52,932 nucleotides of DNA from IMG/VR virus record IMGVR_UViG_3300046170_000229, positions 1-52,932 of that record, one strand, 5' to 3'. Of this stretch, positions 16,589 to 38,426 are shown piece by piece; within the stretch, counting starts at the first letter, position 1, and every line of letters starts with the position of its first letter. Below the pieces are notes generated by a model. The model worked only from the letters and a program-made list of their open reading frames with translations. It had not been told where the DNA came from and made no database searches. The translations under genes were made by a program, and so were the position numbers. The DNA is from a virus (lineage: Duplodnaviria; Caudoviricetes).

Positions 16589-17381
16589 TAAATAACTCCT
16601 TTATCCTTGTGGGGTCTAAATATTTTAAGTCTTCTTCTAAGACTTTTACTTCAGTATCAATAAGATACCTCAAGCCTTTTGATAAATCAAATGCCTTCTG
16701 CGTTGCGTCTCTATCTAAAGCTATAATTACTTTCTTAAAGTTTTTAGATAAGTAAATTGCATACTCTTCTTTCATAGTTGTTCCTAATAAGGCAACTCCT
16801 GTGTAGATAGAACTAATAGCACAAGCAGAAGCACAGTCTTCTACAATAACTGCAGTGTCGCTTTTACCACAAGTAAAAGGAATAATGTTTTTATTGTAGT
16901 TGAACCACTTAGGCATGTTAAGGGGATTAAGACTTCTACCTACTGCAGAAACTACATCACCCTCATCTTTAACTACAAAGACTGCTCTATCTTTACGGGG
17001 GTCAAAGTATATTGATGCTATCCCTTCAAGGTATGCCGGGTAACAATTATTTTTCTTAACATAAGACAAACATTTTTCACTAGATTGTATGTTAGTAAAA
17101 TGTTTTGGGATTGTCCAAGCTTTTACTTTCGGTTCAGCCGAGCCTTTTGATGACGATAGTTCCAAGAACTTGGTAACATCATCAGGAGATAATGCTCGTT
17201 CAGTAGTACCACCAATCTTACAAGATGCATGATAGCATCCCCAATTAATTTTAAAGTCTTCTGTGTTTATATAGAATGTATTTTTGTTAAGACAAAAAGG
17301 ACAATCCATTCTAACTCGGGTGTTAGAAGGTATCTCTAACTGTTTGATATATTCTAATTGATGTTTCTTTGTGATGTACAT
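16578..17381 (-). CDS. DNA primase (Zn ribbon + TOPRIM)
   Basis: CPFC...CYHASC; VIVED, ALLGT, ALDRD; AGAAAGG SD places the start at ATG 17381. Confidence 0.88.
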   Translation of the reverse strand: MYITKKHQLEYIKQLEIPSNTRVRMDCPFCLNKNTFYINTEDFKINWGCYHASCKIGGTTERALSPDDVTKFLELSSSKGSAEPKVKAWTIPKHFTNIQSSEKCLSYVKKNNCYPAYLEGIASIYFDPRKDRAVFVVKDEGDVVSAVGRSLNPLNMPKWFNYNKNIIPFTCGKSDTAVIVEDCASACAISSIYTGVALLGTTMKEEYAIYLSKNFKKVIIALDRDATQKAFDLSKGLRYLIDTEVKVLEEDLKYLDPTRIKELFNVT

Positions 17382-17393
17382 TTTTACCTTTCT

Positions 17394-17411
17394 ACTTAAC
17401 ACGTGTTAAGT
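17394..17411. repeat. Palindrome copy 1, ACTTAACACGTGTTAAGT
   Basis: Perfect 18-bp palindrome abutting the primase SD. Confidence 0.95.
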
Positions 17412-17434
17412 TATTTTCTCATTTCTTCAGAGCC

Positions 17435-17466
17435 AAAAAAAGGGGCAGTCATTTCTGACCACCCCT
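17435..17466 (-). terminator. Intrinsic terminator
   Basis: AGGGGTGGTCA-GAAA-TGACTGCCCCT plus T run on the minus strand. Confidence 0.85.
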
Positions 17467-17510
17467 CTCAGCCACAAAGAAAGAAAGTATATGAGTGAAT
17501 ATACTCTTTC

Positions 17511-17538
17511 TTTATAACTTTTTTTTCTTATATTGCAA
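17511..17538 (-). promoter_or_regulatory. Candidate sigma70 promoter TTGCAA-N16-TATAAA
   Basis: Near-consensus boxes; same 16-bp spacer as the other promoters. Confidence 0.5.
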
Positions 17539-17673
17539 GTGCTTTAAATCTTTATCTAAATGTTTTTTTATCAAAGGAAATTGAAAATCTGTTCGATACT
17601 CCCCTTGATGGTATCTTAACAATGACCACAATCTAGGATTAAATTTTTCTAGATATGCTTCAGTATTATTCAT
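17512..17673 (-). CDS. Small hypothetical protein (53 aa, not in ORF track)
   Basis: AGAAAGGAG SD right after palindrome copy 2; MNNTEAYLEKFNPRLWSLLRYHQGEY... Confidence 0.65.
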   Translation of the reverse strand: MNNTEAYLEKFNPRLWSLLRYHQGEYRTDFQFPLIKKHLDKDLKHLQYKKKKL

Positions 17674-17687
17674 GATTACTCCTTTCT

Positions 17688-17705
17688 ACTTAACACGTGT
17701 TATCT
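17688..17705. repeat. Palindrome copy 2 (hybrid arms), ACTTAACACGTGTTATCT
   Basis: 12-bp perfect core TAACACGTGTTA at 17691-17702. Confidence 0.9.
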
Positions 17706-18122
17706 TCAAAAAGTTTTTTGAGGATGTGTACAATGACAAACTGTTATATGTACATTAGTGGTCATGAATCCACTCACGTCAACATCCTCAAAAAATCTTG
17801 TTGGTAGTTTAGCGTCCAAGTCAGGTTCCTGAGGCTTTGCGTCCTTTTGGCTATATCTTGGTTTCTGCATATAATTTTTCAGCAGACCTGCCACTAAACT
17901 AATTTACGTGGGGCAGACTGTACAATCTACCCCAAGGTACTTTGCGTTGCGTTTGAGTTTATACTCGGCTACGAACCCAAGAATACGAAATGGCTTACGC
18001 ACGAGTACCGACAGTGACCATAGACTTACCTATCATTTTGGTAGCTAATTCAAAACTCATCAAGCTTAGTGTAATCGGTTAAAAGAAACATTCAATCGTC
18101 ATCAAATGTTTCTCTAAACCTT
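17706..18122 (-). ncRNA. Candidate large structured ncRNA (about 420 nt), family unknown
   Basis: GC-richer than flanks; nested helices, including 14-bp 17714-27/17782-95, 11-bp 17909-34 with G-U pairs, 17936-47/17997-18009, 9-bp 18084-92/18105-13. Confidence 0.55.
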
Positions 18123-18138
18123 CTTAACACGTGTTAAG
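18123..18138. repeat. Palindrome copy 3, CTTAACACGTGTTAAG
   Basis: Perfect 16-bp palindrome. Confidence 0.95.
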
Positions 18139-18139
18139 T

Positions 18140-18172
18140 AAAAAGGGGTGTCAGATATAGACTAACACCCCT
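18140..18172 (-). terminator. Intrinsic terminator
   Basis: AGGGGTGTTAG..CTGACACCCCT plus TTTT, ending 1 nt from the palindrome. Confidence 0.8.
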
Positions 18173-18222
18173 GTCGGCTTAATTAACAAACAACTCCCGA
18201 AAGGATTTCGGAGTCACTTATA

Positions 18223-18250
18223 ATAATAAACTAATCCCCTGTTAAGTCAA
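18223..18250 (-). promoter_or_regulatory. Candidate sigma70 promoter TTGACT-N16-TATTAT
   Basis: 5/6 and 5/6 consensus; spacer begins TAACAGGG as in the 21674-21701 promoter. Confidence 0.6.
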
Positions 18251-18507
18251 ATCGTAACAGGCTGATTATCTTTTCCTATAACAGTAACATCACCTAATGC
18301 TTCTATCCAAACTTTAGCACCACAGGATAAAGGTTTGTCAGGACTATAGACAATTCTTGTAGCACCATTGCAAACAACATCAGAGCCATAGTAATTATGC
18401 TTGTATGTTTTAACTGTAATAACATCTTTGATGTCATCAGGATGTTTGGCATTGTGTCGAATGTTATGTTGGTTAACATGAATACGTTTAATCAAATGAC
18501 TCTCCAT
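18247..18507 (-). CDS. Conserved phage hypothetical protein
   Basis: RIHVNQH...VITVK...VYSPDKPLSCGAKVWIE; start likely MESH. Confidence 0.75.
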   Translation of the reverse strand: MESHLIKRIHVNQHNIRHNAKHPDDIKDVITVKTYKHNYYGSDVVCNGATRIVYSPDKPLSCGAKVWIEALGDVTVIGKDNQPVTI

Positions 18508-18679
18508 TCTTTTGTAGTACTTCACTAACATCAACTATTGTTCTGTCTATACCTTTTTCATACAAAGGACTAGAATGACCATCCATTAAATAATTATTCT
18601 GTGCCTCTTCTACATCTTTTGCTTTTATGTAATACTTTTTTGTTTTAGTTACCTCAACAACAATTTCATACATAGGCAT
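18488..18679 (-). CDS. Small hypothetical protein
   Basis: AAAGGA SD; TAATG coupling; YEIVVEVT..YYIKAKDVEEA. Confidence 0.7.
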   Translation of the reverse strand: MPMYEIVVEVTKTKKYYIKAKDVEEAQNNYLMDGHSSPLYEKGIDRTIVDVSEVLQKNGESFD

Positions 18680-19014
18680 TAGTTTGTTCCTTTCATGTCA
18701 ACAGTACCTACAAACATTAATCTGTAGTCATCTGTGTTCTCTACTTCAATATGATAAATCATACCCTTAGCTTTGATATATTTAATCGTATTGTAATTAA
18801 TATTTCTATAACCTTTCTTCTGCATATCATAAGCAACTAAAAAATTATTAGGGTTGGTATATTGTCTACCGCCCTTTTGATTTTTCTTTACACCTAGTCT
18901 GAATACACCAGTTCTAAATGTTCCGTCTTTCTTGTAGAAACCTACAGAGAAAGTATTCTGTGTACCTACCATTTCTTTAATAGCTTCAGGCACAGTTAGT
19001 TTTGACATTAACAT
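18679..19014 (-). CDS. SH3/Sm-like beta-barrel protein (WYL_2/DUF2693-like)
   Basis: FSVGFYKKDGTFR...YDMQKKGYRNIN; AGAAAGGA SD. Confidence 0.65.
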   Translation of the reverse strand: MLMSKLTVPEAIKEMVGTQNTFSVGFYKKDGTFRTGVFRLGVKKNQKGGRQYTNPNNFLVAYDMQKKGYRNINYNTIKYIKAKGMIYHIEVENTDDYRLMFVGTVDMKGTN

Positions 19015-19029
19015 ATCGTTCCTTTCTAT

Positions 19030-19047
19030 AGATAACACGTGTTATCT
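19030..19047. repeat. Palindrome copy 4 (variant), AGATAACACGTGTTATCT
   Basis: Perfect 18-bp palindrome with both outer arms changed symmetrically. Confidence 0.92.
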
Positions 19048-19202
19048 CTATGGTTTTAATATCCAATAAGTTATTATTATAGATATAAATATAATCCATT
19101 CTACATCCATAAATTTTTTACGATTTCGCTTTACATATTTTAAAATCCATGATAGAAGGGGTTACCACCCCCGAGGGTATATATACCCCTTTATTATTAT
19201 TC

Positions 19203-19230
19203 ATAATACCATACCCAAAGGGTAAATCAA
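19203..19230 (-). promoter_or_regulatory. Candidate promoter TTGATT-N16-TATTAT with extended -10 TG
   Basis: Same TTGATT -35 and 16-bp spacer as 20604-31 and 21674-701. Confidence 0.5.
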
Positions 19231-19245
19231 ATTTATTACTTTTCA

Positions 19246-19422
19246 TTATTTAGTTTCCTTAGTGTTACTATAATACGTATTAGTTAAAATGTAATTAACT
19301 CTAATACGTTCTCTTTTTCTTTCTCTTTCTTGTTTACTCATTTGAGCCTTACTAAGATTGTATCCTAATAAGGTACTTTCTTTTTTTTCTTTGCGACCTC
19401 TGATTTCAACATCAGATATCAT
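19246..19422 (-). CDS. Small basic hypothetical protein (58 aa, not in ORF track)
   Basis: GAGGT SD; MISDVEIRGRKEKKESTLLGYNLSK... Confidence 0.55.
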   Translation of the reverse strand: MISDVEIRGRKEKKESTLLGYNLSKAQMSKQERERKRERIRVNYILTNTYYSNTKETK

Positions 19423-19624
19423 TGCTTACCTCATCTAAATCATCTTCAACCATAACATGAATGTCTAGTTTATGTTTGTCATAATCTAATCCATATTCAT
19501 CTAACAACATTCTCTTTGCTAAATACTCAGCGTCAGAGAATATATCTCTACTATTACCTGCTACTTTTACTTTGTAGCGAATAGTAAAAGATACTTCTAA
19601 GGGATAATCTTTTTTAAATCCCAT
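19412..19624 (-). CDS. Small hypothetical protein
   Basis: GAGGAG SD; TAATG coupling. Confidence 0.7.
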   Translation of the reverse strand: MGFKKDYPLEVSFTIRYKVKVAGNSRDIFSDAEYLAKRMLLDEYGLDYDKHKLDIHVMVEDDLDEVSNDI

Positions 19625-19794
19625 TACCTACTCCTCTCTTCAAATATTCTATGTACTACATCATAGAACATAGCATCTATAGTTTCTATACCTAAGTCAT
19701 ATTTTTCTACTAGATTAGAAAAGTCAGCCATAGACATACCTTCTAATTCATCTTTAATACTTTCTAGTACTTCTTCATTCTGTTGATTACTCAT
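19624..19794 (-). CDS. Small acidic protein (56 aa, not in ORF track)
   Basis: MSNQQNEEVLESIKDELEGMSMADFSNLVEKYDLG...; fills the gap with overlaps at both ends. Confidence 0.7.
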   Translation of the reverse strand: MSNQQNEEVLESIKDELEGMSMADFSNLVEKYDLGIETIDAMFYDVVHRIFEERSR

Positions 19795-20005
19795 CTACAA
19801 ATAACCCACCTTTGCTTATTCCAAATACTAAATAGTCCTTCATGTATTCCCCATATCTTGAGGATTCATAATCATCATGAGTTATTTGTATTCTTACCGT
19901 CCAATACTTATCTGCATCAACAGATAAAGATTTTTGAATTTGAACACCACTTACATGATGATTTTTAGGTATAACTTTTTTAATATCACGCATTGTTATC
20001 TTCAT
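19787..20005 (-). CDS. Small hypothetical protein
   Basis: GAAAGGA upstream; tight operon packing. Confidence 0.6.
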   Translation of the reverse strand: MKITMRDIKKVIPKNHHVSGVQIQKSLSVDADKYWTVRIQITHDDYESSRYGEYMKDYLVFGISKGGLFVDE

Positions 20006-20171
20006 TCCTTTCTAATAGTGTTGCGTATTGATAATCAACTTCATCTATTTCTAAGTCACCACTAATATCTAGACCACCTTTTTCCTGTAGTATTTTTCTA
20101 GCTTCATCTTCATTTTGTGCTTGTATTTCATAAGTGTATGCACAAGGTACTGCAAATTTAAATGTTGTCAT
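19986..20171 (-). CDS. Small acidic hypothetical protein
   Basis: YEIQAQNEDEA motif resembling 18488..18679. Confidence 0.65.
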   Translation of the reverse strand: MTTFKFAVPCAYTYEIQAQNEDEARKILQEKGGLDISGDLEIDEVDYQYATLLERNEDNNA

Positions 20172-20376
20172 CTTTCTGTTCCTTTTTTAATTGGGTGATT
20201 AACTTTGATAACTCATTATTTGTACCAATAAGATTGTTTACAACATTATTAATATGTTCTTTCTCATTCCTATGAAAATGAGGATGGTGTTGCATCCACG
20301 CATAAGCAATGATATCTGACAAATAATCTTGTGTATCTCTCATTACTTTTCTTGCTTCTTTTAATGTATCAATCAT
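20158..20376 (-). CDS. Small hypothetical protein
   Basis: GAGG SD; ATGA overlap. Confidence 0.65.
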   Translation of the reverse strand: MIDTLKEARKVMRDTQDYLSDIIAYAWMQHHPHFHRNEKEHINNVVNNLIGTNNELSKLITQLKKEQKDDNI

Positions 20377-20564
20377 TTTCCAACCTCAACAAATAATTTA
20401 CCACCTAAATAATTTAAATTATTACTCATGATGTATTCTTTTGCTCTATCAGCTACATCACCCCCTTCAGGAATACAAAAAGGGATTGTAGCTTTACCTA
20501 GTAATTCGTTATCCAAAGCGATAACGTAAATATAACGTACTGTTTTTTCTGATTTTTTAGACAT
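20373..20564 (-). CDS. Small hypothetical protein
   Basis: AGAAAGG SD directly after palindrome copy 5. Confidence 0.7.
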   Translation of the reverse strand: MSKKSEKTVRYIYVIALDNELLGKATIPFCIPEGGDVADRAKEYIMSNNLNYLGGKLFVEVGK

Positions 20565-20576
20565 AATTACCTTTCT

Positions 20577-20592
20577 CTTAACACGTGTTAAG
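20577..20592. repeat. Palindrome copy 5, CTTAACACGTGTTAAG
   Basis: Perfect 16 bp, between promoter and SD. Confidence 0.95.
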
Positions 20593-20603
20593 TATAAGGG
20601 TGC

Positions 20604-20631
20604 ATTATAAAATACACCCTTGCTAAATCAA
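20604..20631 (-). promoter_or_regulatory. Candidate promoter TTGATT-N16-TATAAT
   Basis: Perfect -10; overlapped by inverted repeat 20596-20621. Confidence 0.65.
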
Positions 20632-20633
20632 AT

Positions 20634-21533
20634 TTAAGCTACTTGTAATAAGTTATTCCACTCATTACTACCCAAAGCTTTAGTGATAGATGCTTGTCTA
20701 GTCATCTGATACTTTGGTGTTCTAGCTTTACCATTGAAGTTGTGAGTAGCCCAATGAGTCATGGTGTTGTATAAAGACCATACTGTATTACCCCACCTAT
20801 CCTTCTCTCTTGAGAATAAGTGATTTAAAGTTTCTAATCTTTTCTGATTAACTTTATTGGCAGTATGTTTTGAGCCTCTACACATAGTGTTCTTAAAGAA
20901 GGTACTAGCATAATCTAGTCGAGGTAATTCTTTAACACCCCATGTAGACATTCTATTGGCTTGAAGCAGATAGTTATCTACTAATCTTCCAATATCATTA
21001 ACTAATTCCAAGTCTTGTAAGTTCTTTGTATGCTTACCATAATGTTTGACAAATGCTTTACCATTAAACACTTGTAAGTTGGCACAATAACCACCATAGC
21101 CACCAAAGACAAAGTGAAATGCCATTTTCATATTGTAAGAATTGAAAATATCAAATCTTAAATACTGAAAGTCATCCCCATTCTTTGTAGGAATATGCAC
21201 TTTGTATTGGTCATCTTTACAAACAATAGTTCTCTTTACTAATGCACCACTATCAAACACTTGGTCAGTGACATCAATGTTATTGAACTCACGATAAGAG
21301 TTATCTAGTTCTCTATTGACTGTTTGATACAAGTCTTTGTGATTAAGTAGCTTGTAATTCTTACCTACTATGGCAATTGTTTTCTTTTCATCAGTCCTGA
21401 ATACTGCTCTACCTACTTCTTCAGGTACAGTTCTTACACCTGTATCAGGTCTGTATGTTTGTATTGGTAGTAAGGTCACAGGAAAATCAAATTTCTCTGT
21501 GAGTAGTTTTATCTTTGCTTCGTTGCTTAACAT
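20634..21533 (-). CDS. DUF932/DUF945-family protein
   Basis: VGKNYKLLNH; FNSYN...CANLQ; HTKN; TVWSLYNTMTHWATH; SD places the start at 21533. Confidence 0.8.
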   Translation of the reverse strand: MLSNEAKIKLLTEKFDFPVTLLPIQTYRPDTGVRTVPEEVGRAVFRTDEKKTIAIVGKNYKLLNHKDLYQTVNRELDNSYREFNNIDVTDQVFDSGALVKRTIVCKDDQYKVHIPTKNGDDFQYLRFDIFNSYNMKMAFHFVFGGYGGYCANLQVFNGKAFVKHYGKHTKNLQDLELVNDIGRLVDNYLLQANRMSTWGVKELPRLDYASTFFKNTMCRGSKHTANKVNQKRLETLNHLFSREKDRWGNTVWSLYNTMTHWATHNFNGKARTPKYQMTRQASITKALGSNEWNNLLQVA

Positions 21534-21556
21534 ATATTTACCTTTCTTTGTTAAGA

Positions 21557-21576
21557 TACTTAACACGTGTTAAGTA
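21557..21576. repeat. Palindrome copy 6, TACTTAACACGTGTTAAGTA
   Basis: Perfect 20 bp. Confidence 0.95.
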
Positions 21577-21583
21577 ATTTATT

Positions 21584-21610
21584 AAAGTGGGGAGTTGGTA
21601 GACCCCCCAC
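21584..21610 (-). terminator. Probable intrinsic terminator
   Basis: GTGGGGGGT-CTACCA-ACTCCCCAC-TTT (short U tract). Confidence 0.6.
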
Positions 21611-21673
21611 AACTTATATACACAAACTAATTTCACAAGAGTACTCTCTTGCTACGATTAAATTTGTATTTTA

Positions 21674-21701
21674 ATATTATTGAAAAACCCTGTTAAATCA
21701 A
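21674..21701 (-). promoter_or_regulatory. Candidate promoter TTGATT-N16-TAATAT
   Basis: Shares TTGA(C/T)TTAACAGGG with 18223-50. Confidence 0.5.
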
Positions 21702-21806
21702 GGGGATATTACAATAAATTCAACACTTTTGCATACCTGTTATGTTAGATAAACAATAGTGTCTTCCACCACCAACACTATAATAGTAATTAATGGGGGT
21801 GAAACT

Positions 21807-21989
21807 ATGAATGGCGTATTTACAAATACTAAAAAATCTATTAATTTTTTCCTTAACTGTTTCAGTTTTTTTGATAATTACGAAGACCATGTCAAAAGAT
21901 TTGTTGAAGTCGAATTCAAACCAAATGACAGGCAGTGGGCTTATGAACAGGTCAAAGCTAGAAACATTAGAAAAAAATCTAATAGTTAA
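21807..21989 (+). CDS. Small counter-oriented gene (60 aa) within the early arm
   Basis: GGGGTG SD-like; own TATAAT at 21779-84; converges on 21986..22165. Confidence 0.6.
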   Translation: MNGVFTNTKKSINFFLNCFSFFDNYEDHVKRFVEVEFKPNDRQWAYEQVKARNIRKKSNS

Positions 21990-22165
21990 GAGTTATTAGA
22001 CTTCATGTATTCCTTATTATTTTTATCGGTAATACGTTGGTCTAATAATAATCTAGGCTCGTGTGTTCCATGATAATTAACATTAGATTTAAGAAATACT
22101 TTCTCACCACTACTGTTGATTACATGGCAACCACACCTATAATATAATACTTTTTTATTTTTCAT
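21986..22165 (-). CDS. Small hypothetical protein (59 aa, not in ORF track)
   Basis: AGGAG SD; MKNKKVLYYRCGCHVINSSGEKVF... Confidence 0.6.
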   Translation of the reverse strand: MKNKKVLYYRCGCHVINSSGEKVFLKSNVNYHGTHEPRLLLDQRITDKNNKEYMKSNNS

Positions 22166-22174
22166 AATACTCTC

Positions 22175-22864
22175 CTAATGTGTAATAAATAATACACTCT
22201 TTACTTCCTTATTCCAACAAAGGGTACACGTACCACAACTAGCAGTCTTGCCTAATTGTTCGGGGCAAGTGATACCTTCATCTGTTAACTCTTTACTATT
22301 GGCAGATAACTTATCTTCCACCATATCTGAGAAACGTACAGAAAATCTATCCCACATCTTATCTCTCAAATTCTTTATAGCTTTACCTATATTCCTTTCT
22401 TCTTTCCAACCAATACCCACATTACGAATATCATGATACTGTCTATTCCAATGGTGATGAGTATAGCCATAGCAAGACAGATTAGGAAAAGTCAGTAATG
22501 CCATTCTCCAAAAGTCCACATACTCTACACTAGGAAAGTCACCACCAACATGAAGTCGAACAAGAAAACCTTGTTGATGTTTCTTGTCTAGCTTCATCAG
22601 TTCTTTCCATAGCCTTGTCATCAAAGATTTAGAATACTTAAATCGATGAGCAAAAGGCATGTTATCGTCATAGCAATTCTCCCAATGATAACAACTACTT
22701 GGGCAATTCTTTCTTACTTCTAAATGTAATGTGTAAATAGGCTTACCTTTGTGTCTACCTTTGGTCACCCACTTACCAAGTTTTTTATTGGTGCTACGTT
22801 TTAACAAATCAAACTTGTAGTTCGTTGCACCAAAGACGTTTCGTATATACTTACAACCATTCAT
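22175..22864 (-). CDS. GP88-like (radical-SAM-related, Cys-rich) phage protein
   Basis: TNKKLGK; CPSSCYHWENCY; VRLHVGGDF; YGYT; CPEQ....SCGTCTLCW. Confidence 0.75.
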   Translation of the reverse strand: MNGCKYIRNVFGATNYKFDLLKRSTNKKLGKWVTKGRHKGKPIYTLHLEVRKNCPSSCYHWENCYDDNMPFAHRFKYSKSLMTRLWKELMKLDKKHQQGFLVRLHVGGDFPSVEYVDFWRMALLTFPNLSCYGYTHHHWNRQYHDIRNVGIGWKEERNIGKAIKNLRDKMWDRFSVRFSDMVEDKLSANSKELTDEGITCPEQLGKTASCGTCTLCWNKEVKSVLFITH

Positions 22865-22894
22865 AATAGTTCCTTTCATTGTTATAATAGTATT

Positions 22895-22912
22895 ACTTAA
22901 CACGTGTTAAGT
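22895..22912. repeat. Palindrome copy 7, ACTTAACACGTGTTAAGT
   Basis: Perfect 18 bp, 4 nt after the upstream stop. Confidence 0.95.
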
Positions 22913-22916
22913 CACG

Positions 22917-23423
22917 TCATCTATCTATCTTGTAATAGAAATAGTTTTCTAAATCCTCAAAGAACTGGCATATTGCAAACCAATTCCTAGACAAATAGCT
23001 TCTGTTATCCCATTCTATTTCTGTTCTGCACCCACAAGACAGAGCAAAATATCTTCTTACCTTGTCAATTATACTTCTCTCTTGATATCGGATACCGTTC
23101 CACCACCAAATGTCCTGTATTTCTTTCTGTAACATAGCTGTCCACAACTCAATACTTTCCTTGTCATTTTTTTCTTTAGCTATATCAAGACACTTTTGTC
23201 TATCAGACAACTGTTTTTCTATGGTGTCATGACGAACTTTTACCTTATCTGTTTTTGGCATTTTTGTATCGTCACTGCGATTTAAGTATGTTTTCTGTGC
23301 ATCTTTTAAATCACCTGTCATGGTTATAGCACTCCAAACATTCTCATAATTAAATACATCTTTATGTATCCATAGTCTTATTTTCATAAAGACATAATTT
23401 AAAAAAGTATAAACGTACTTCAT
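22917..23423 (-). CDS. Hypothetical protein
   Basis: 168 aa, Trp-rich, ATGA overlap. Confidence 0.7.
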   Translation of the reverse strand: MKYVYTFLNYVFMKIRLWIHKDVFNYENVWSAITMTGDLKDAQKTYLNRSDDTKMPKTDKVKVRHDTIEKQLSDRQKCLDIAKEKNDKESIELWTAMLQKEIQDIWWWNGIRYQERSIIDKVRRYFALSCGCRTEIEWDNRSYLSRNWFAICQFFEDLENYFYYKIDR

Positions 23424-23677
23424 GCTACTTTTCCTTCCTTGTTTGATACTTTGAATATAAATATGCTTAAAGGTAGAAATCCTGTTTCAAACATACTACC
23501 TTCGAGCATAAGTCCATTATCCATTTTAGATACCAATTCTTTAATATCTTTCTTATTTAATGTAAAAGGTAAAAAACCTACCTTGTTGTAAGTTTCATCA
23601 TAGCTATGAACAAACATAACTTTCTTTGCTCTTCTAAGATGTTCTTGCTTAATAGGTGTCCATTTTAATTTAGTCAT
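23420..23677 (-). CDS. Hypothetical protein
   Basis: Coupled ORF. Confidence 0.65.
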   Translation of the reverse strand: MTKLKWTPIKQEHLRRAKKVMFVHSYDETYNKVGFLPFTLNKKDIKELVSKMDNGLMLEGSMFETGFLPLSIFIFKVSNKEGKVA

Positions 23678-23885
23678 CTAATGCCACCTTTGTTATCTCA
23701 TAACCTCTCCAACGAGGGTGGCTACCTGCTGACCAAAACTCAAGGCTAGACTCAAATTCATCTTGTGCCTCAAAGAAATCTTTTGCACTTATTCTTTCAA
23801 TAATTCTACCAAATGAATCATAGTTCTCATCATCAGGTTTCTGTTTACTCTTAATGCTATATTTAGCTTCACATACAAATATCAT
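23670..23885 (-). CDS. Hypothetical protein
   Basis: AGAAAGGA SD. Confidence 0.7.
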   Translation of the reverse strand: MIFVCEAKYSIKSKQKPDDENYDSFGRIIERISAKDFFEAQDEFESSLEFWSAGSHPRWRGYEITKVALDD

Positions 23886-23923
23886 GTTAATTCCTTTCTT
23901 TGTTTGTGTTGTTATTGTTAATC

Positions 23924-23941
23924 ACTTAACACGTGTTAAGT
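23924..23941. repeat. Palindrome copy 8, ACTTAACACGTGTTAAGT
   Basis: Perfect 18 bp. Confidence 0.95.
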
Positions 23942-23974
23942 AAGGGAGGTTCAAAGGAGGGATAGAGAAATATA

Positions 23975-23988
23975 TAACACGTGTTAAG
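23975..23988. repeat. Palindrome copy 9, TAACACGTGTTAAG
   Basis: 12-bp perfect core, right arm canonical. Confidence 0.9.
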
Positions 23989-24236
23989 CTAAGCAGTCAT
24001 TGTGTTGGAGATAAATACACTAATCGTGCCTAGCATTATAATATCAAAGGTAGTTTCTTAAGTCCAGTCGGATACAGGCTATAAACGTTGATAAATAAGG
24101 ATTGTAGAGGTTTGGAAATGTTTGGAAGTTTTGCCACGATATTCAGAGCAGGTTCGTGAGCAGTTTTGGTTCGTTCCGTTCGTTCGGGTTCAGTCGATAG
24201 TTCCAAAGGAACGATAGTTCCACAGAAATTTTAGAC

Positions 24237-24268
24237 AAAAAAAAACCCCCCAGATTTCTCTGAGGGGT
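24237..24268 (-). terminator. Strong intrinsic terminator
   Basis: ACCCCTCAGA-GAAA-TCTGGGGGGT plus long T run, 19 nt after the ORF stop. Confidence 0.9.
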
Positions 24269-24287
24269 CTTAAGATTTATTGATTAA

Positions 24288-25019
24288 TTATCTGAAGTTT
24301 ACAGTCTTAGGCATTTCGACAATACCTTTCATTTGAGGATTTGGCTCTTCTTCATTTTCTGCAGTTCTTGAATCTACCACACTTTCCAAAGTGTTTAGTA
24401 AATCTGTTAAATCCTCTAAGTCTAGATTTTGTAAAAACTGAGGATTATCTTTTAAATAGTCTAAAGACTCCCTAGCTTTTGATAGAGTGGCTACTTCATT
24501 TTTCTTGGTGTCTCTATTTCTAGTCTTGTTTTTCTTATCCATATCTTTGACAGATAATACATTTTTCTTTGCATCTAAAATTTGAGCAGTTTTTTCATCA
24601 ATGCTAAATTTAGGATTTTCAAAAAGAATTATTGAAGCGTCAATTATTCTTTTCATTGCCATAACAAAAGAGTGTAATTGCTTAGACTTATCATAACCAG
24701 TGAAATGGTAAAGAGCATTTCTTAACTGGTCTTTTGATAGTACTAGATTATTTTTCTTAGCCTCAGTAATCATTTGAACAGTTAATTTAAGTAATGCGAT
24801 TTTTTGAGATACTGATTTTTTTTCCGCATTTTCAAAAGTCTTTATTAATCCCTTACCTACTGAAAAAATTTCAGTCAAAGTCTTTTCAGAATAATAATTT
24901 TTCTGAAGTTCTTTAGGCAATTTTAAAGCTTTTGCCTTTACTGATTTTTTAGCCACTTTTGAAGCATGGCTAGAAGTTGATTTCTTTACAGTCTTTTTAG
25001 TGTTTTTCTTGTTTGTCAT
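24288..25019 (-). CDS. First early gene, monocistronic; Lys-rich N-terminus, function unknown
   Basis: GAAAGGA SD; own terminator; 243 aa. Confidence 0.8.
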   Translation of the reverse strand: MTNKKNTKKTVKKSTSSHASKVAKKSVKAKALKLPKELQKNYYSEKTLTEIFSVGKGLIKTFENAEKKSVSQKIALLKLTVQMITEAKKNNLVLSKDQLRNALYHFTGYDKSKQLHSFVMAMKRIIDASIILFENPKFSIDEKTAQILDAKKNVLSVKDMDKKNKTRNRDTKKNEVATLSKARESLDYLKDNPQFLQNLDLEDLTDLLNTLESVVDSRTAENEEEPNPQMKGIVEMPKTVNFR

Positions 25020-25056
25020 TTTTATATCCTTTCAAAGATATTTGTTAATTAAGAAT

Positions 25057-25084
25057 ATTATGCACTTTTGGGATGTTAATACAA
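25057..25084 (-). promoter_or_regulatory. Candidate promoter TTGTAT-N16-CATAAT
   Basis: Just upstream of the SD of 24288..25019. Confidence 0.45.
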
Positions 25085-25127
25085 ATAAATAATAAGGGTA
25101 ATTTAAGGGCTATAAACAAGGATAATA

Positions 25128-25145
25128 ACTTAACACGTGTTAAGT
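25128..25145. repeat. Palindrome copy 10, ACTTAACACGTGTTAAGT
   Basis: Perfect 18 bp. Confidence 0.95.
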
Positions 25146-25229
25146 AAATCCATATTGAAAGTACATAAGTTATATTTTTTCTCTATCCCTATTAACTCCC
25201 AGTTATAAAACTACTTAAAATATTATTAG

Positions 25230-25245
25230 CTTAACACGTGTTAAG
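25230..25245. repeat. Palindrome copy 11, CTTAACACGTGTTAAG
   Basis: Perfect 16 bp. Confidence 0.95.
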
Positions 25246-25515: not shown

Positions 25516-25543
25516 ATTATAATACCCTATGCAGTTTTGTCAA
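25516..25543 (-). promoter_or_regulatory. Consensus sigma70 promoter TTGACA-N16-TATAAT (leftward)
   Basis: Both hexamers perfect on the minus strand. Confidence 0.75.
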
Positions 25544-25557
25544 TGATAAAATTTTGT

Positions 25558-25585
25558 TTGACAGAATAGTGACCAACACTATAAT
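25558..25585 (+). promoter_or_regulatory. Consensus sigma70 promoter TTGACA-N16-TATAAT (rightward)
   Basis: Both hexamers perfect; heads the plus-strand arm. Confidence 0.8.
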
Positions 25586-38402: not shown

Positions 38403-38426
38403 AAAGGGGGGTTTATTCCCCCCTTT
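38403..38426 (+). terminator. Intrinsic terminator after the capsid genes
   Basis: AAAGGGGGG-TTTATT-CCCCCCTTT. Confidence 0.8.

Follow-up and report, generated by a model that had tools for sequence, protein, structure and literature searches.

The window analysed here is the whole of IMG/VR virus record IMGVR_UViG_3300046170_000229, a linear phage genome of 52,932 bp (CheckV completeness 94%; ~33% G+C). Its subject element is a 16-base palindrome, full form A-CTTAACACGTGTTAAG-T, which recurs along the leftward, early arm and is the leader element of nearly every block of that arm. Placement and comparison with relatives together suggest that the palindrome is very probably a regulatory site of the early arm, read in a sequence-specific manner. 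More tentatively, its copies may be loading sites for an immediate-early phage factor that lets host RNA polymerase pass the terminators of the arm, in the manner of lambda N/nut.

The first-pass annotation of this DNA had described a minus-strand unit of promoter, hairpin, terminator, palindrome and gene, seen three times. These units, A, B and C, are all present (Table 1). The count of three did not survive: the palindrome is present eleven times, and further promoter-leader-palindrome units lie at 24066-24038, 20631-20604 and 19230-19203. Most copies have no promoter and strong terminator directly upstream; a hairpin of -15 kcal/mol or lower occurs within 60 nt upstream of four of the eleven. 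The palindrome is not, as had been supposed, a component of a three-fold unit.

The palindrome in the early arm and in relatives

The two arms of the genome are divided by divergent sigma70 promoters, P_L and P_R, which stand back to back and are both perfect at 12/12 positions. All eleven exact copies of the 12-mer core of the palindrome, TAACACGTGTTA, fall within 17,397-25,243, in the leftward arm, against a mean of 0.00 in 100 shuffles; the late arm has none. The palindrome is the dominant repeat family of its region, and the ~7 kb of densely packed replication genes beyond the primase start contain no copy. Seven copies are followed at 1-26 nt by a Shine-Dalgarno sequence (SD; GAAAGG-like) and then an ATG. 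One adjoins the first helix of a non-coding RNA. The remaining three stand as upstream partners in the tandem arrays that precede the first and second operons, with spacings of 101 and 48 bp. The hairpin that the palindrome can form has an energy of -6.0 kcal/mol (z -3.6). In 185,579 species genomes the 16-mer has 20 single matches, none of them in Pelagibacterales; a factor of a host regulon becomes a less likely reader of the site.

Among 29 DUF932 loci from IMG/VR, the palindrome is found in two close ones (L005, 10 copies; L006, 7 copies) and is absent from 27 distant ones. Of the related whole records, G002 has 7 copies and G001 has 10, the latter all confined to 21.7-29.6 kb of a 48-kb sequence. 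In each of eight primase loci with upstream sequence, a palindrome directly precedes the primase SD, six having the core TAACACGTGTTA and two TATAACGTTATA. The flanks vary between lineages and within genomes: CTTAAC..GTTAAG, GATAAC..GTTATC, (A/G)GTAAC..GTTAC(C/T) and CCTAAC..GTTAGG. In a second lineage (L155, L156 and the metagenome contigs L312, L300, L305, L331 and L285), every site is switched to CTTATAACGTTATAAG at syntenic spots; the layout there places three copies ahead of the first gene, two ahead of the next operon and a single one ahead of each later block. Conservation of the architecture in relatives, which the first-pass annotation had named as a check, is borne out: promoter hexamers are kept, stems change compensatorily and palindromes are syntenic.

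Covariation was assessed over 55 distinct 22-nt sites, which are related by descent and are not 55 independent events. Eight positions are invariant, in the frame TA-NN-ACGT-NN-TA, and the dyad symmetry spans 16-20 nt. Positions +-7 are paired in 52/55 sites (UA 29, GC 17, AU 3, CG 2, UG 1), with all four Watson-Crick types represented; +-8 are paired in 43/55, +-9 in 37/55, and +-10 and +-11 in about half. The covariation score is 0.487 versus 0.152 +/- 0.020 in shuffles, a value that none of 500 shuffles reaches, and is at most 0.15 with slid partners. At the outer pairs, the excess of G-U over A-C on the sense strand is small and is confounded by the purine-rich SD flank.

Covariation of this hairpin type would also be expected of an element acting as RNA, in which the leader hairpin is a processing site, a 5' stabiliser or a translational operator and fixes the 5' limit of every mRNA as well as that of the non-coding RNA. 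Consistent with this, the palindrome is invariably on the strand that is transcribed, either 0-26 nt ahead of an SD or against the first helix of the non-coding RNA; it folds with the energy given above; and the copy at 22898 separates two cistrons and has neither promoter nor terminator close by. The proposal is nonetheless rather improbable. A structural hairpin would drift as the terminators do, whereas eight positions are invariant in the 55 sites; the copies in tandem 100-200 nt ahead of the first gene have no SD beside them; and a 7-9 bp stem is short for RNase III. A purely translational role is ruled out, because one site precedes a non-coding RNA.

Flank symmetry could also be upheld by self-templated correction of quasi-palindromes, and the copies might then have no regulatory role, being linkers for recombination or else selfish palindromes that correct themselves and spread from one gene cassette to another. 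Mosaic boundaries do lie near palindromes, and the same gene bears the resident palindrome type in different phages. One contig, L314:3360-5118, mixes types, with CCTAACACGTGTTAGG (CCTAAC) before the non-coding RNA and primase and CTTATAACGTTATAAG (one CTTATA) before an inserted gene, and looks like a recombinant. T4-type PeSL cassettes are likewise described as mediating module shuffling (PMC4122927). Such an absence of function is barely credible given the strict placement before SDs, the lack of copies in the late arm and the eight positions held invariant across lineages with 24-85% protein identity. It also leaves unaccounted for the switching of all sites in concert in one lineage.

G003 (L238:4109-9344), a phage of 56% G+C, has only polymerase, helicase and primase in common with the window, and carries three exact copies and one near copy of CGTAACACGTGTTACG before four early genes. 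In the first 24 kb of Pelagibacter phage HTVC033P there is no repeated palindrome of 12 nt or more; TTGACA-N17-TATGAT promoters are found instead, some of them in or after terminator hairpins. At 403-683 and 1205-1260 of the same phage (L171), TTGACA -35 boxes lie in the loops of terminator-like hairpins, a compact overlap of terminator and promoter. HMO-2011, CRP-207, CRP-3, CRP-2 and CRP-738 have matches to the palindrome only with 2 mismatches, at the level of the reversed control. Seven unrelated viral contigs of 37-50% G+C (L218, L231, L142, L037, L081, L076 and L116) hold 3-6 copies of AACACGTGTT with other flanks, most of those in L231 lying inside open reading frames (ORFs). A common phage-encoded reader was considered for the motif-bearing contigs and set aside: the window shares no protein with L037, L081, L082, L142, L076, L116, L218 or L231, and only replication genes with G003. 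That AACACGTGTT turns up in contigs unrelated to the window may be a coincidence owed to the size of the database.

Table 1. Positions of palindrome copies, promoters, leaders and other features in the window
Feature	Position	Strand	Remarks
P_R, divergent twin of P_L	25558-25585	+	perfect TTGACA-16-TATAAT
P_L, leftward early promoter	25516..25543	-	perfect TTGACA-16-TATAAT
Palindrome copy 1 (CTTAACACGTGTTAAG)	25230..25245	-	upstream partner, in long leader of first gene
Palindrome copy 2	25129..25144	-	101 bp after copy 1; ~110 nt before ATG 25019
First gene of arm, 243 aa	24288..25019	-	no known family; predicted homodimer; candidate palindrome reader
Terminator T1, after first gene	24236..24271	-	13-bp stem, U9; strongest in arm
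Promoter 24066	24038..24066	-	sigma70-like TGGACT-17-(TG)TATTAT; conserved in L005, L312
Palindrome copy 3 (CTTAACACGTGTTATA)	23973..23988	-	leader of promoter 24066-24038
Palindrome copy 4	23925..23940	-	SD 26 nt downstream; ATG 23885
Palindrome copy 5	22896..22911	-	5 nt past stop of 168-aa gene; SD 18 nt downstream; ATG 22864 (GP88/DUF7227-like)
Promoter A	21674..21701	-	TTGATT-16-TAATAT
Leader A	21584..21652	-	hairpin 21652-21635; terminator-like hairpin 21610-21587, weak U/A tract
Palindrome copy 6 (unit A)	21559..21574	-	SD 12 nt downstream; DUF932 ATG 21533
Promoter-like 20631	20596..20631	-	TTGATT-16-TATAAT (20631-20604); -10 in loop of 11-bp hairpin 20621-20596; no U tract
Palindrome copy 7	20577..20592	-	SD 1 nt downstream; ATG 20564
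Promoter-like 19230	19203..19230	-	TTGATT-16-(TG)TATTAT; paralogue of 20631 cassette (repeat family D4)
Palindrome copy 8 (GATAACACGTGTTATC)	19031..19046	-	SD 4 nt downstream; ATG 19014 (WYL_2 protein)
Promoter B	18223..18250	-	TTGACT-16-TATTAT; -10 is consensus TATAAT in L154
Leader B	18139..18215	-	5' hairpin 18215-18192; intrinsic terminator 18172-18144 followed by UUUUUA
Palindrome copy 9 (unit B)	18123..18138	-	between terminator B and first helix of non-coding RNA, adjoining both
Structured non-coding RNA region	17705..18122	-	modular; ~420 nt; bounded by two palindromes
Palindrome copy 10 (GATAACACGTGTTAAG)	17689..17704	-	SD 2 nt downstream; ATG 17673
Promoter C	17511..17538	-	TTGCAA-16-TATAAA; within end of 53-aa ORF
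Leader C	17433..17513	-	A/U-rich hairpin (17513-17476), CU-rich linker, intrinsic terminator 17469-17438 followed by U7
Palindrome copy 11 (unit C)	17395..17410	-	SD 2 nt downstream; primase ATG 17381

Promoters, terminators and the non-coding RNA

Interspersed among the palindromes are sigma70-like promoters, at least seven of them, and four or five hairpins that resemble terminators. As a class, sigma70-like matches are not enriched (71 versus 77.8 +/- 8.3 expected), so the promoter calls rest on conservation in relatives and not on the scan; terminator-like sites in 10-26 kb number 15 versus 5.8 +/- 2.3 expected. By the criterion of -35 and -10 hexamers spaced 16-18 nt apart and kept in relatives, promoters A, B and C appear to be sigma70 promoters, their hexamers persisting while the flanks change. 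The promoter A hexamers are identical in the window, L005 and L006, though the L006 leader is unrelated in sequence, and those of promoter C are retained in seven relatives, L156 included.

Leaders A, B and C, scored against 200 shuffles each, fold as a 5' hairpin followed by a terminator hairpin, with z of -2.95, -4.80 and -4.04, respectively. The distance from promoter to terminator is ~83 nt in A, 76 nt in B and 70 nt in C, the start being taken ~7 nt after the -10 hexamer. This agrees with the first-pass annotation, which had noted a terminator ~70-85 nt past a promoter with essential genes just beyond; the terminators are strong and intrinsic, and the promoters are sigma70-like. When an intrinsic terminator is defined as a G+C-rich hairpin followed by a U tract, T1, B and C qualify, with 11-14 bp stems and U5-U9 (B, 11 bp with U5; C, 14 bp with U7); terminator-like hairpin A, with its weak U/A tract, and the hairpin at 20621-20596, which has no U tract, fall outside. 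The terminator stems change compensatorily between relatives, as in terminator C, where GGGGTGGTCA/TGACTGCCCC of the window stands against GGACAGTCA/TGGCTGTCC in L156. The hairpin at 20621-20596 is nearly unchanged in L005, L006 and L151, as is the palindrome that follows it.

Two further features of these leaders are recorded. The paralogous cassettes at 19203-19235 and 20603-20636 share TAAATTTGATTTA ... TATTATG or TATAATG, then G+C-rich hairpins and then the palindrome. The single-stranded linker of leader C (17470-17484, minus strand), CUUUCUUUCUUUG, could pair with its complement ACAAAGAAAG, found in two other leaders, those of DUF932 (~21545) and of the 71-aa gene (~23900); by this complementarity, the linker of a putative short RNA C could act as an anti-SD regulator.

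The first hairpin of the non-coding RNA shows compensatory changes in L156, and relatives (L151, L154, L044 and G005) carry differing sets of structured modules, 324-794 nt in length. Rfam gives no match at gathering score in the whole window, and at 17300-18400 only chance-level matches (E 0.27-0.86). Metatranscriptomes were represented by Logan contigs from four runs of three studies, each holding 0.10-0.13 of the sampled words; such contigs show no starts, ends, strand or level. The deepest RNA-library pieces in two runs fall on the non-coding RNA (17809-18112 at 29.7x; 17809-18006 at 59.2x), others having 2.3-9.1x. Individual contigs stop at 18112, 19026 and 24031, and two contigs span the palindromes at 23927 and 23975; none of these observations is counted as evidence of starts or cleavage.

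The leftward arm is that of early and replication functions: the 243-aa first gene, small ORFs, a GP88/DUF7227-like gene, DUF932, a WYL_2 protein, a Toprim primase, a DnaB-like helicase and PolA. Along the rightward arm are a ferredoxin-like gene and genes for terminase, portal and virion proteins; between 25.5 and 45.4 kb this arm has a single plus-strand terminator locus (38403-38426). The family-A DNA polymerase is nearest that of HTVC033P (54% identity across 99% of its length); next come HMO-2011 and the CRP roseophages, at 35-39%. According to PMC9038755, subgroups VII-IX of the HMO-2011-type phages have 31.9-35.4% G+C and are probably pelagiphages, and subgroups IV-X are without lysogeny genes. 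A search of phage nucleotide sequences gave no match, and the window contains no tRNA or tmRNA. The first-pass description of a podovirus lacking its own RNA polymerase is supported: no phage RNA polymerase or sigma factor was found among 56 ORFs scanned (Pfam and/or PHROGs), and the 1389-aa ORF has no family match and no DxDxD motif. The ORFs scanned also include no HTH, RHH or ParB domain and, with late-arm ORFs covered in part, no HTH repressor or integrase. Between T1 and promoter 24066, at 24090-24235 (minus strand), are iteron-like direct repeats, with GGAACTATCG twice, GAACGAAC-like repeats and TTCCAAAC twice; the GGAACTATCG pair and GAACGAAC-like repeats are seen again in L312. This repeat region may be a replication origin.

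Essential genes behind strong terminators would also be served by an ordinary terminator-promoter junction, in which host polymerase, redirected by an early phage factor, restarts at or just after each palindrome. The palindrome occupies the place of the HTVC033P promoters, which also sit after or inside terminator hairpins, and the T4-type PeSL cassettes are composite terminator/promoter units (PMC4122927). Several observations make such a restart promoter highly improbable: no sigma factor or polymerase gene was found in the scan; a two-fold symmetric element has no direction; and no -10-like hexamer is placed to start transcription before the SDs that begin 1-4 nt after the palindrome. As a sigma70 promoter in itself, the palindrome was rejected: TTAACA taken as a -35 puts the -10 on the start codon, and 'TGnTAAGTA' is a poor extended -10. 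A role as an activator site at -40 or further upstream was rejected as well, since the start would fall past the ATG where the SD begins 1-4 nt after the site. The RNA-library contigs that cross the palindromes at 23927 and 23975 also speak against a restart, weakly, as they are contigs only.

A candidate reader and its action at the palindrome

The best candidate for the protein that reads the palindrome is the 243-aa product of the first gene, as judged from gene order, comparison and structural modelling. It is the sole gene between P_L and the strongest terminator, and the ~490-nt leader that separates it from P_L contains two palindromes. The same order of promoter, palindromes, first gene and strongest terminator is also found in L312. 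The protein has 37 homologues and no Pfam domain, and matches no family of known function in Pfam or PHROGs.

The predicted model of the first-gene protein (pLDDT 70.8) contains a helical bundle at residues 40-135, for which the best wide VIA match is a generic four-helix bundle (Z 7.3). The first 35 residues are disordered and Lys-rich, with eight invariant positions. A symmetric homodimer is predicted with ipSAE 0.74 in 3/3 runs, the best of three controls reaching 0.00; in a benchmark, the mark used was attained by 20/30 known homodimers and 1/23 monomers. The homodimer runs agree in at least 84% of contacts, with partner pLDDT of at least 72. Assignment to HEPN and similar folds was rejected, as the top Foldseek rows have E > 1 and the R-x4-H motif is not conserved.

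The identity of the first-gene protein to the copy in the window follows the type of palindrome. G001, with the palindrome type of the window, has 79% identity; G004, with the GGTAAC type, has 43%; and L312, with the TATAAC type, has 24% (BLASTP E 2e-5 over 222 colinear residues, with 8/37 homologues matching at E < 0.01). Over the compared genomes, neighbouring plus-strand genes are 91-100% identical, the ferredoxin-like gene is 69-78% identical, and DUF932, primase, helicase and polymerase have 73-85% identity. As a control, the equally variable 168-aa gene does not follow the site, having 27% identity in G001 despite the same palindrome. Searches of loci for more protein-site pairs, with queries A1, P0033 and P0030, returned only G001 or nothing.

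The control gene itself (22917-23423, minus strand) is hypervariable, at 24-36% identity in relatives versus 50-94% for flanking genes. A 62-aa ORF at 21811-21999 is the sole plus-strand ORF within the leftward arm; it has a strong SD, is convergent with a 59-aa gene, and is kept in G001, G002, L300 and L305 (76-88%) with a P_R-like upstream region. As a reader of the palindrome it was set aside, its best ESM Atlas score being 0.84 with no family. The small early ORFs were discarded on finding nothing in Pfam or PHROGs, and nothing was found for the early ORFs of G003.

Were the palindromes loading sites for this protein, early transcription would proceed in steps. Host sigma70 polymerase would start at P_L, cross two palindromes, make the first protein and halt at T1. 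The accumulated protein would then load at the palindromes, as an RNA hairpin, a DNA hairpin or duplex. A loaded polymerase could pass T1 and then A, B and C into DUF932, the non-coding RNA and the primase-helicase-polymerase blocks, and the palindrome after each terminator would reload the factor. Polymerases starting at promoters A, B and C would meet a terminator before any palindrome, giving short terminated RNAs of ~70-85 nt.

Antitermination fits best because the site is transcribed before the SD, covaries as a hairpin, is found in the first gene's leader and again behind each terminator, and has as its candidate reader an immediate-early product followed by a terminator. The first-pass annotation had proposed the palindrome as a read-through or restart signal. 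It does behave as a specific signal read by something, and the signal may mean read-through, restart or a block. A palindrome that follows a terminator cannot rescue polymerases from the promoter just before that terminator. Short RNAs are therefore the more likely products of promoters A, B and C, and any read-through would be by polymerases that were loaded at palindromes further upstream.

The chief rival, which we regard as unlikely, is a duplex-DNA operator. The first-gene product would be a dimeric repressor that binds the leader palindromes, blocks elongating or escaping host polymerase and shuts the early arm, its own gene included, with the genes behind terminators reached by leaky termination. 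The dyad is perfect over 16-20 bp, including its self-complementary centre, and the predicted homodimer, well above its controls, has Lys-rich tails. Two to three sites in the factor's own leader and two before the next operon are as autoregulation would predict. At 20579, and at the WYL_2 gene of L006, the site lies 4-10 nt after the -10 hexamer, within the polymerase footprint. The sites are multiple, intergenic and confined to one arm; phage stoperators are likewise multiple and intergenic. Against a repressor, positions +-7 and +-8 take any base yet remain complementary within one genome, which a dimer reading duplex DNA does not need, and the conserved strong terminators before essential replication genes are left without a reason. 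The ORFs scanned yielded neither HTH nor RHH nor any other DNA-binding domain, none of the sites overlaps the strong promoters P_L and P_R, and subgroups IV-X of this phage group carry no lysogeny genes (PMC9038755).

Antitermination has its own difficulties. The first-gene protein has no recognisable RNA- or DNA-binding fold (Foldseek, no match at E <= 0.001), and a tail that is Lys-rich and not Arg-rich, on a symmetric dimer, means that duplex DNA fits at least as well as an RNA hairpin. The two or three sites ahead of the candidate factor's own gene are more suggestive of negative autoregulation. Only four genomes underlie the co-variation of protein and site, and hhalign fails to back the first-gene relationship with L312 (probability 0.97%, E 0.056). 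G003 has the same core, yet its first gene (240 aa, with a strong terminator after it) is unrelated (hhalign probability 0.1%), and the presence of two palindrome types in L314 speaks against strict specificity of one reader. By eye, no boxA-like flank is seen beyond A/T at +-9 and the SD, no formal motif search having been run, and there are eleven loading sites versus two in lambda.

The full proposal is somewhat more doubtful than antitermination as such. It holds that abundant, uncultured SAR11-type phages may possess a new processive antitermination, in which a homodimeric immediate-early protein of no known family acts at a hairpin after every early-arm terminator ('multi-nut'), and protein and hairpin switch specificity together between lineages. 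If true, multi-nut antitermination would give a podovirus that lacks a polymerase its early-to-middle switch.

Comparison with known systems

HMO-2011-type phages are among the most abundant marine phages. In the main text of PMC9038755, the main comparative paper on them, the terms promoter, terminator and palindrom do not occur and regulation is not discussed; a literature search on pelagiphages with antitermination, palindrome, terminator or early promoter had no pelagiphage paper among the matches listed. The present lineage offers a compact, clean regulon, with one invariant site, eleven copies, one candidate reader and two natural specificity variants. The timing of replication genes by a phage without RNA polymerase, in a host with very few regulators, becomes directly testable, and the protein-site pairs could serve as orthogonal control parts.

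The closest cultured relatives, HTVC033P and the cultured HMO-2011-type phages, have the same two-armed genome with a replication module but, unlike the window, lack the palindrome and have many sigma70 promoters instead. Recurring control cassettes at module boundaries are also known from the T4-type phages: PeSLs are small terminator/promoter composites between early genes that coincide with module exchange, although they carry a sigma70 early promoter and no palindromic protein site (PMC4122927).

Antiterminators of the BglG/LicT type are dimeric, and here too a candidate dimeric protein is paired with a short leader hairpin. These proteins act on a RAT leader hairpin that controls an intrinsic terminator (PMC5393181). 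The RAT overlaps its terminator, and the two structures compete. The palindrome begins 0-24 nt beyond the U tract, and competition of the RAT type is excluded for this reason.

Mycobacteriophage L5 and its cluster A relatives reportedly have stoperators (Brown et al. 1997), many copies of a short site in intergenic spaces downstream of promoters, through which one phage protein controls elongation. Here too, one short site recurs many times between genes, in small spacers downstream of promoters. Stoperators are asymmetric 13-mers that act in an orientation-dependent manner in both arms and serve lysogenic silencing; the present sites are palindromic and confined to one arm, with no repressor or integrase found in the scanned ORFs.

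In lambda, the Q system comprises pR', the 6S RNA and tR', with the Q-binding element within the promoter. Units A, B and C resemble it in having a sigma70 promoter, a short transcribed stretch and an intrinsic terminator, and the genes beyond are proposed to need read-through, short RNAs being made otherwise. Unlike the Q system, the conserved site follows the terminator and is not in the promoter, there are at least three units versus one, and these precede replication genes and not late genes.

The closest likeness is to lambda N/nut. N is the gene nearest P_L, flanked by nutL upstream and tL1 downstream, and in lambdoid phages N proteins and boxB hairpins diverge together. Here, the immediate-early gene is likewise first after the leftward promoter, with a site in its own leader and a terminator after it; the site forms a small hairpin whose apex is constant and whose stem covaries, as seen in the invariant frame and in the pairing at +-7 in 52/55 sites; candidate factor and site diverge together; and the delayed-early genes lie behind intrinsic terminators in a phage with no polymerase of its own. 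The differences are equally specific. There are eleven sites and not two, each after and not before the nearest terminator, the palindrome is perfect including its loop, and no boxA is seen by eye. Unlike N, the candidate factor has 243 aa, is folded, is a predicted dimer, is Lys-rich and not Arg-rich, and has no similarity to N (no Pfam match). As proposed, the palindrome system is one that works like lambda N/nut but is not a member of that family.

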